Part shown: in pieces, positions 5,275 through 5,508 of the stretch
How the letters are laid out: every line of letters starts with the position of its first letter
How positions within the stretch are numbered: position 1 is the first letter of the stretch
Source of the DNA: a virus
Lineage: Duplodnaviria > Heunggongvirae > Uroviricota > Caudoviricetes
Reading direction: 5' to 3' (one strand)
DNA length: 6,035 bases
Virus record (IMG/VR): IMGVR_UViG_2547132269_000007
Location: 1-6,035 of that record
The notes under the pieces: model-generated
The model's input: only the letters and a program-made list of their open reading frames with translations
Database searches by the model: none
What the model was told of the DNA's origin: nothing
Made by a program: the position numbers and the translations under genes

Positions 5275-5349
5275 GGGTCAGTCGTATAAAGGTCATTACG
5301 GAAGGCTGTTAACCTTCTTATCGTGGTTCGAGTCCACGCTGTCCCGCCA
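5275..5349 (+). tRNA. tRNA-Asn (anticodon GTT), phage-type, 75 nt with encoded CCA
   Basis: Cloverleaf by hand: acceptor GGGTCAG/CTGTCCC (one T-T mismatch), anticodon stem GAAGG/CCTTC with loop CTGTTAA, perfect T-stem CGTGG/CCACG with loop TTCGAGT, discriminator G, CCA at 5347-5349. Confidence 0.6.
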
Positions 5350-5354
5350 AACAT

Positions 5355-5430
5355 GCTGGTTTAGCTCCAATGGTAGAGCAACTGACTTGTAATCATCAGG
5401 TCGCCAGTTCGATTCCGGTAGTCGGCACCA
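5355..5430 (+). tRNA. tRNA-Thr (anticodon TGT), thrU-like, 76 nt; several non-Watson-Crick stem pairs
   Basis: D-arm GCTC-CAATGGTA-GAGC, anticodon loop CTTGTAA, T-loop TTCGATT, 3' end AGTCGGC-A-CCA. The acceptor 5' strand GCTGGTT gives three G-U pairs and the base of the anticodon stem has two mismatches. Confidence 0.7.
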
Positions 5431-5433
5431 TAT

Positions 5434-5508
5434 GCGGGTATCATATAATGGCTATTACCTCAGCCTTCCAGGCTGATGATGCGGGTTCGATTCCCGCCAC
5501 CCGCTCCA
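5434..5508 (+). tRNA. tRNA-Gly (anticodon TCC), glyT-like, 75 nt
   Basis: Anticodon stem TCAGC/GCTGA with loop CTTCCAG, T-arm GCGGG-TTCGATT-CCCGC, acceptor GCGGGTA/CACCCGC (A-C mismatch at 7-66), CCA at 5506-5508. Closely resembles E. coli glyT as I recall it. Confidence 0.8.

Follow-up and report, generated by a model that had tools for sequence, protein, structure and literature searches.

The window is the whole 6,035-nucleotide stretch analyzed here, positions 1 to 6,035 of the Caudoviricetes record IMGVR_UViG_2547132269_000007 in IMG/VR. Its open reading frames (ORFs) and Pfam matches mark it as the nin-Q-late-leader stretch of a lambdoid prophage. The subject of this analysis is a cassette of three tRNA genes, tRNA-Asn(GUU), tRNA-Thr(UGU) and tRNA-Gly(UCC), that lies downstream of the Q antiterminator gene, between the late promoter with its leader terminator (pR'/tR') and the first late gene, which is the position of lambdoid late-leader tRNAs. 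This late-leader arrangement is already known, and the locus is a real cassette built by recombination inside a tRNA gene. The features of the region are:

4695-5183, + strand: Q antiterminator gene of the phage 21 type (160/162 amino acid identity to phage 21 Q; Pfam Phage_antitermQ, E = 4e-24)
5190-5225, + strand: late promoter pR', from the phage 21 alignment, with the -35 hexamer TTGACA at 5190-5195 and the transcription start at about 5225
5198-5213, + strand: Q-binding element ATTGAGCA/AATGAGCA, from alignment to the annotated phage 21 feature
5227-5274, + strand: leader terminator tR', hairpin and T-run, identical to the annotated phage 21 terminator
5275-5349, + strand: tRNA-Asn (GUU), phage type (ARAGORN; Rfam 55.3 bits)
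5355-5430, + strand: tRNA-Thr (UGU), recombinant (Rfam 47.0 bits; no ARAGORN call)
5396-5397, + strand: Thr nucleotides 42-43, TC in place of GT by comparison with host thrU
5434-5508, + strand: tRNA-Gly (UCC), from glyT (ARAGORN; Rfam 46.9 bits; 70/75 identity to K-12 glyT)
5520-5545, + strand: UUCG-loop intrinsic terminator at the end of the tRNA cassette (pattern scan and folding; kept in JLK-2012 and DEC5B)
5592-5843, + strand: first downstream ORF, DUF3927 family, outside the cassette (Pfam PF13064, E = 4e-11; DUF3927 annotation in DEC5B)

The stretch from pR' to tR' (5190-5274) equals the annotated phage 21 sequence base for base except for one difference at 5223. The alignment covers the phage 21 -35 hexamer, Q-binding element, transcription start, sigma-dependent pause element and tR', and phage 21 tRNA-Asn begins at the same base after the T-run as the window gene. 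The tR' hairpin has a folding energy of -20.2 kcal/mol (z = -5.2). At the other end of the cassette, the closing hairpin (5520-5539) consists of 8 pairs capped by a UUCG loop, and six T (5540-5545) and then CA come after it; the folding energy of the terminator is -12.3 kcal/mol (z = -3.7). The spacer AACAT (5350-5354) separates Asn from Thr and TAT (5431-5433) separates Thr from Gly, and CCA ends are encoded in all three genes. The genes were assessed with the Rfam RF00005 covariance model, which has a gathering score of 29 bits, and with ARAGORN as a second caller. RF00005 matched 5275-5346 (55.3 bits, E = 3e-10), 5355-5427 (47.0 bits, E = 6e-8) and 5434-5505 (46.9 bits, E = 7e-8), and ARAGORN called the outer two genes, Asn-GTT at 5275-5349 and Gly-TCC at 5434-5508. 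An earlier note, made from the letters of this DNA alone, had described three tandem tRNA genes with 5- and 3-nucleotide spacers that start right after the tR' T-run and end at a UUCG-loop terminator. The Rfam matches, the phage 21 alignment, the pattern scan and folding bear this out, and every non-canonical pair that it listed for Asn, Thr and Gly is present. Its proposal that expression would depend on Q antitermination is sound by homology, because Q is nearly identical to phage 21 Q and pR'/tR' are of the Q21 type. The description in that note was right and its interpretation partly right; the recombinant origin of Thr, the origin of Gly from glyT and the link to tRNA-cutting defense enzymes set out below were absent from it. 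Constitutive transcription of the leader RNA from pR' to tR' (5225-5274, about 50 nucleotides) would be expected in the lysogen. Such a short leader transcript would parallel lambda 6S RNA and the StxS small RNA of Stx phages.

The tRNA-Asn gene is 100% identical in the window, phage 21, HK446, Sf6, JLK-2012 and DEC5B and is strongly divergent from host asnT. Covariation in this gene is not measurable because all fetched copies are invariant except for one base in Salmonella phage 29485. The tRNA-Thr gene is of the phage 21 type over nucleotides 1-26 only (5355-5380, 26/26 identical to phage 21 tRNA-Thr), and nucleotides 27-76 (5381-5430) are of the host thrU type. Alignment to host thrU and glyT, proposed in the earlier note, was run: nucleotides 26-76 of Thr match K-12 thrU at 48 of 51 positions, the three differences being G42U, U43C and A49G, and Gly differs from K-12 glyT by C6T, G10A, A38G, T65C and G66A, with C6T and G66A forming a compensated pair. 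The Thr crossover falls within the shared sequence GGTAGAGCA at nucleotides 18-26 (5372-5380). The acceptor stems of the two Thr parents differ by transitions alone, and the hybrid stem therefore still pairs, by way of three G-U wobbles.

The thrU-like and glyT-like part of the cassette has counterparts in other prophages. A Thr-TAT-Gly doublet that lacks tyrU is found in the late leaders of many other lambdoid prophages, including phi80 in DH5alpha and TUM9757, and is also carried by an Ile-Thr-Gly array behind another Q. It occurs in 81 of 146 IMG/VR contigs with a thrU-type anticodon arm; 43 thrU and 29 glyT copies are identical to the host genes, and other doublet copies carry compensated stem changes at 6-66, 5-67 and 48-64. 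These doublets (phi80-type and other lambdoid) resemble the window in their thrU-like and glyT-like genes, 3-nucleotide spacer and late-leader position, and some have TC at Thr 42-43. They differ in that their Thr is thrU-type throughout its 5' half, with a perfect acceptor stem, and their Gly usually has A38, and the doublets are preceded by Ile-CAU, a Lys-like gene or nothing, whereas the window doublet is preceded by Asn. The cassette does not have the gene order and spacers of a host-operon copy: compared with the host thrU-tyrU-glyT-thrT operon, it lacks tyrU, the 116-nucleotide spacer and thrT, and it lies in a prophage late leader instead of upstream of tufB. Direct capture of the thrU/glyT-like part from the host chromosome was considered and dropped because the tyrU-less doublet already circulates in many lambdoid prophages, and the sequence comparisons indicate that the donor was most likely another prophage. 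The crossover within Thr would have joined a phage-21-type Asn-Thr leader to a thrU-like/glyT-like Thr-TAT-Gly doublet from other prophages, and the locus shows tRNA genes serving as crossover points between phage modules.

Several related sequences touch on this history. The TAT spacer (5431-5433) corresponds to the first base after host thrU (T) and the two bases before host glyT (AT; L004, 264-274 and 470-474), which matches the remnant of a clean deletion of tyrU and the spacer, three bases being too few for proof. One cassette (L020, 1279-1512; IMG/VR 2698536369_000006) joins the phage 21 5' half to a thrU arm of wild type, with GT at 42-43 and A49, and its Gly, which has C11, is close to glyT; all three of its genes are called by ARAGORN, and the cassette could be either the ancestral chimera or a later 3' re-exchange. 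Escherichia coli PapM-32-1 (L034, 481-556) has a phage-21-type Thr in which the D-stem pair G10-C25 is changed to U10-A25, a compensated change that is a sign of structure selection in this Thr family. In L009 (2423-2499) and L010 (2416-2492), ARAGORN calls a tRNA-Lys(UUU)-like gene, unannotated by PGAP, between tRNA-Ile(CAU) and the Thr-Gly doublet; the PARIS nuclease AriB acts mainly on Lys(UUU).

Lambdoid late-leader tRNAs that read rare A-ending codons are also exemplified by the ileZ-argN-argO array downstream of Q in 933W-type Stx phages, which has different isoacceptors and sequences unrelated to the window trio. In phage 21, Asn and Thr are annotated at exactly this spot (PMC9119081), and one or two tRNAs occupy it in Sf6, SfI, ST64T and phage L. 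The Asn and Thr pair of phage 21, HK446, Sf6 and SfI ('tRNA-Thr21') lies directly after the tR' T-run, as in the window, and is identical in Asn and in the first 26 nucleotides of Thr; phage 21 also has Q, pR' and tR' of the window's type. The window differs from this type in that its Thr departs from nucleotide 27 onward, with a thrU-type arm carrying G42U/U43C, and in that Gly and a terminator are added. A pattern scan found no terminator after phage 21 Thr, and the same scan also misses tR' and is hence insensitive. HK446 (L170, NC_019714, 5098-5253) carries the phage 21 Asn and Thr genes, the Thr identical, behind a Q/pR'/tR' of the lambda type, unannotated in the RefSeq record; the module starts after the T-run at the same junction of TTTTTTATTT with GGGTCAG despite the unrelated terminator hairpin.

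Annotations of the full Asn-Thr-Gly trio exist for Escherichia phage JLK-2012 (Marienburgvirus) and several E. coli genomes, and O55:H7 prophages also have it. Copies of the chimeric cassette are carried by 17 IMG/VR contigs and by Escherichia albertii NBRC 107761, where the 234-nucleotide cassette is identical to that of the window and the contig is 99.6% identical to window positions 4682-6035 and divergent upstream; the DEC5B cassette differs by 1 nucleotide. The JLK-2012, O55:H7 and E. albertii prophages all have the trio, the chimeric Thr and the closing terminator. JLK-2012 differs from the window by C68 in Thr, which gives one wobble fewer, and by C8, G10 and T65 in Gly. Gly C65, which creates the A7/C66 mismatch, is found in the window and E. 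albertii only. Across 19 chimeric cassettes, nucleotides 1-121 are invariant and 14 variable sites lie in nucleotides 122-234 (p = 2e-5). Pair-breaking changes in Gly differ by lineage within this family; A10, T39, C52 (in the conserved G53-C61 pair) and C65 occur, and others have C8.

The three genes depart from a regular cloverleaf to different degrees. Asn has two non-pairs, including U4/U69. Thr has three non-pairs, A27/C43, C28/U42 and A52/C62, the last common to host thrU, together with four wobbles, U3-G70, G5-U68 and U6-G67 in the acceptor stem and G49-U65. Gly has three non-pairs, A7/C66, A10/C25 and U13/U22, the last common to host glyT. Minimum-energy folding as a test of function was not decisive; because the minimum-energy fold of host thrU is itself not a cloverleaf, the gap between the cloverleaf and the minimum-energy fold was compared instead. 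This gap is 2.5 kcal/mol for Asn, 11.1 for Thr and 8.6 for Gly, compared with 1.3 for thrU, 0.9 for glyT and 0.6 for phage 21 Thr. In the Thr minimum-energy fold, the acceptor 5' strand from phage 21 is paired with the thrU-type T-stem. The invariant nucleotides U8, G18-G19, U33, G53-T54-T55-C56, A58 and C61 are kept in all three genes, as is the T-loop sequence GTTCGA, and the loss of invariants or of the anticodon loop that would indicate a pseudogene is not seen. Under the identity rules for E. coli tRNAs, the elements recognized by the synthetases are also kept: G1-C72, C2-G71, G35, U36 and A73 in Thr; G1-C72, C2-G71, G3-C70, C35, C36 and U73 in Gly; and the GUU anticodon and G73 in Asn. 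From these features, Asn is probably active. Thr may be active although weakened by its three-wobble acceptor stem, its strength being doubtful, and Gly appears weakened or partly degraded by two further mismatches that are private or rare. The copy of the cassette in the window is weakened, yet it is not an obvious wreck. PGAP annotates Thr in six genomes with C68, one base from the window Thr, and ARAGORN calls the L020 chimera, in which the anticodon arm is wild type. Standard tRNA callers silently omit tRNAs such as the window Thr in genome annotation.

The most distinctive feature of Thr is the TC allele (G42U, U43C), which breaks the 28-42 and 27-43 pairs, leaves a 3-bp anticodon stem and converts the 3' CNG motif from CAG to CAU. 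Alleles were counted by exact-pattern scans of IMG/VR for the thrU-type arm, with contigs rather than independent events as the units. Nucleotides 42-43 were GT in at least 120 arms, TC in 28 and CC in 2. These scans returned no single mutants, there being 0 matches to G42 with a non-T43 and a non-G42 always occurring with C43, and no compensating changes at 27-28. The TC allele is present on the chimera and, judged by flank, D-loop variant and downstream neighbor, in at least six further combinations, making at least 7 contexts, and is found on otherwise perfect thrU backbones that PGAP accepts (TUM9757). Among complete E. coli genomes, 2 records match the TC allele exactly, in a search whose megablast identity bands are unable to part TC from wild type. 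Random decay would yield mostly single changes. The mismatches in the Thr anticodon stem form a recurrent two-base allele that fits plain decay poorly, which is suggestive and not proof, and the stem looks more like known escapes from tRNA-cutting defense enzymes than like plain decay.

Two Toprim tRNA nucleases provide the basis for this comparison. P2 Old is the effector of P2-lambda interference and is lethal because it cleaves host tRNA-Thr(UGU), in which a paired CNG motif at nucleotides 28-30 and 40-42 is cut after its C; phage tRNA-Thr(UGU) genes, that of phage 21 included, rescue cells from Old with the anticodon arm as the determinant; resistance requires both a changed CNG and a shorter stem, and one alone fails (Govande et al., PMC12445682). 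Old depletes Thr(UGU), Gly(UCC), fMet, Val(UAC) and Pro(UGG), and HK446 Thr is a strong counter-defense against it where E. coli thrU gives none (bioRxiv 10.64898/2026.07.10.737580). Old acts on Asn-GUU more slowly than on Thr-UGU and Gly-UCC. The Thr tRNAs of phage 21 and HK446 restore ACA decoding. For AriB the targets are Lys(UUU), Thr(UGU) and Asn(GUU), which it cleaves between nucleotides 40 and 41 within U36-A-A-U39-C40, and a change of U39 abolishes cleavage (PMC12409363).

The host thrU arm, ACUGA/UCAGU, has the motifs CUG and CAG and 5 bp. The window Thr arm, ACUGA/UCAUC, has CUG and CAU and 3 bp, so that both kinds of change are present, although the 5' motif and the AriB site are unaltered, and the stem is shortened as in Old-evading tRNA-Thr; its anticodon loop, CUUGUAA, has the UGU anticodon and A37, as in Old-evading tRNA-Thr(UGU). 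In the phage Asn arm, GAAGG/CCUUC, neither strand contains a CNG, and the sequence UAAC39-C40-U41 has C39 for U39; host asnT has CGG/CCG and U39. The Gly anticodon arm is host-like (CAG/CUG). Asn and Thr carry changes of the evasion type and may resist cleavage, whereas Gly carries none. As a set, Asn, Thr and Gly match the published target lists of the two nucleases, which belong to P2-like prophages and P4-like satellites. The tRNAs of virulent phages (T5 Lys, Thr and Asn against PARIS; T4, Bas32 and Thr6 Thr(UGU) against P2 Old) have the same anticodons and stem changes near the cleavage sites. They have been tested by assay; the window trio is carried by a temperate phage, is recombinant and has a weak acceptor stem.

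These comparisons suggest how the cassette would work. RNA polymerase would start at pR' (about 5225), and only Q-modified polymerase would read through tR' (5227-5274). The three tRNAs would form the 5' part of the late transcript and be excised by host tRNA-processing enzymes; for phage L, the route by which such tRNAs are excised and expressed is not known (PMC8022706), and processing and charging of the window tRNAs is what their sequences would predict. The cassette would supply replacement tRNAs in the late phase that are both readers of the rare codons ACA and GGA and preferred targets of Toprim tRNA nucleases, the latter role being the more important, and the Asn gene and the Thr anticodon arm depart from the host genes at exactly the positions on which cleavage depends. 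We consider a late-leader cassette of a phage-21-type prophage, replacing tRNAs against nucleases and for rare codons, to be the best explanation and place our confidence in it a little above even. A more specific proposal, that G42U/U43C is a natural Old-type nuclease evasion allele that needs both changes and that the trio is a prophage counter-defense kit against P2 Old and PARIS AriB assembled by recombination, is tentative and, in our judgment, somewhat doubtful.

Several observations weigh against the replacement reading. The trio occurs in only 13 of 5426 complete E. coli genomes, and TC is a minority allele among thrU-type arms. The 5' CNG of the window Thr (C28-U29-G30) and its AriB site (UAAUC/A) are intact, and the tRNA may therefore still be cleaved by Old or AriB. 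No nuclease resistance is predicted for Gly because its anticodon arm is host-like. Overexpression of host thrU gave no protection against Old in either Old paper (PMC12445682; 10.64898/2026.07.10.737580), and extra wild-type copies are therefore not an obviously useful counter-defense. Recombination exchanged the proven Old-resistant phage 21 arm for the TC allele, and expression confined to the late phase would follow the triggering of Old by Gam, so its timing is not ideal. The gene-caller and covariance check proposed in the earlier note gave a divided answer: Rfam supports all three genes, but ARAGORN leaves the middle gene, Thr at 5355-5430, uncalled, and PGAP (NCBI) leaves a Thr identical to it unannotated in seven O55:H7-type genomes. 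ARAGORN also calls none of the four TC-allele chimeras tried (window, DEC5B, JLK-2012 and 2013C-4830). Rfam scores fall stepwise for Thr, from 73.8 bits in thrU to 61.5 in phage 21, 49.0 in JLK-2012 and 47.0 in the window. The window Thr cloverleaf has an energy of -8.7 kcal/mol against -19.8 for the minimum-energy fold. In Gly, G38 is able to form a Watson-Crick pair with C32 that closes the anticodon loop, in addition to A10/C25 and A7/C66.

The caller results, falling scores and folding energies just described, with a matching series of Gly scores (glyT 64.9, JLK-2012 55.4, DEC5B 53.7 and window 46.9 bits) and the differing pair-breaking changes in Gly across the cassette family, favor decay, in which Thr and Gly would be pseudogenes left by accidental recombination and Asn at most would be functional. 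The earlier note had offered decaying copies as an alternative, and this part stands for Gly A10 and C65 and for the three-wobble Thr acceptor stem; it does not fit the Thr anticodon-stem pair, given the recurrence of the two-base allele. All three tRNAs score more than 17 bits above the Rfam gathering score, the invariant nucleotides, CCA ends and identity elements are kept, the three acceptor-stem differences are all transitions that still form wobbles, and TC is carried by thrU backbones that are otherwise perfect. We regard decay as a possible account that falls well short of being probable. That the cassette serves codon supplementation only, as more readers for ACA, GGA and AAY in AT-richer phage genes with the odd pairs tolerated as noise, is unlikely. 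It draws on a 2- to 9-fold enrichment of ACA and GGA in window ORFs and JLK-2012 genes relative to 42 K-12 genes. ACA makes up 0.10 of Thr codons in the K-12 genes and 0.31, 0.18 and 0.10 in the early, late and major head genes of JLK-2012, reaching 0.52 in a 590-residue window ORF; the corresponding GGA fractions of Gly codons are 0.08, 0.28, 0.14, 0.08 and 0.43. The same argument has been made for SfI (ACA 17.3% versus 7.1%; PMC3636060) and for phage L (AAC in the capsid gene; PMC8022706), and the majority of prophage Thr-Gly doublets match host thrU and glyT at 100% identity, which fits dosage rather than evasion. The earlier note's statement that the cognate codons are common in phage genes thus holds for ACA and GGA, but the enrichment is smallest, about 1.9-fold, in the co-transcribed late genes and absent from the major head gene, the late genes show no enrichment of Asn codons in the JLK-2012 counts, and the most biased ORF (1150-2922) is on the other strand outside the late operon. 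Codon supply alone also leaves unexplained the anticodon-stem divergence of phage Asn and phage 21 Thr and the paired 42-43 allele without single mutants. The codon argument survives and is weakest for the genes co-transcribed with the tRNAs; the host-identical prophage doublets fit a dosage role for those copies, and dosage and evasion are compatible.

A structural or processing role, in which the tRNA-shaped RNAs act as RNase P/RNase E sites or insulators that detach the pR' leader from late mRNA and, with the second terminator, confine tR' read-through in the lysogen, and decoding is incidental, is very improbable. Terminators stand on both sides of the cassette, the module starts without exception at the last T of tR', also where the hairpins are unrelated, and the statement on excision in the phage L paper leaves room for such a role. 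Against it, phage 21 and HK446 Thr have been shown to restore ACA decoding and counter Old, anticodons and identity elements are conserved, and phage 21 has no evident terminator after Thr in the insensitive scan.

The tRNAs behind Q in lambdoid phages were long ascribed to codon supply. Studies of 2024-2026 show that phage tRNAs can take the place of host tRNAs lost to defense nucleases, and that phage 21 tRNA-Thr does so against P2 Old. The locus adds a three-tRNA set that matches the published targets of Old and PARIS. It is also a natural experiment, in which a proven resistance arm was exchanged for a host-type arm with a two-base allele that fits the two-factor resistance rule. If the proposal of an evasion allele and a counter-defense kit is true, temperate phages would carry in their leader tRNA arrays a record of the tRNA nucleases that they meet.

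Other candidates and neighbors in the window are set apart from the cassette. A potential internal promoter on the + strand at 5422-5449 (TCGGCA-16-TATAAT, 10/12 matches), which spans the Thr 3' end to the Gly D arm, was rejected because its frequency is within the chance expectation from shuffles and its start would fall inside Gly. ORFs that overlap the tRNAs (5217-5354 on the minus strand, 5370-5579 and 5476-5754) were treated as spurious. Two genes upstream of Q were placed by ORF and Pfam reading:

3409-4074: HNH endonuclease
3989-4651: NinG

Downstream of the DUF3927 ORF, positions 5847-6025 (+) give a weak match to the STnc100 small RNA (RF02076) of 36.6 bits, under the gathering score of 47. 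Strong STnc100 copies occupy the same relative position in related prophages (L005, 4726-4915, 148 bits, with AgvB adjoining; L003, 3685-3857, 107 bits). The 590-residue ORF (1150-2922, minus strand, G+C fraction 0.35) is flanked by ninE and the HNH gene, runs opposite to them and has extreme ACA, GGA and AAT usage. It resembles an AT-rich moron, had no Pfam match and carries the annotation 'hypothetical protein' in E. coli Z1323CEC0019. At 3248-3312, in the AT-rich gap upstream of the HNH endonuclease gene, the hexamer TATTTC is repeated in tandem 10.8 times with 94% matches.

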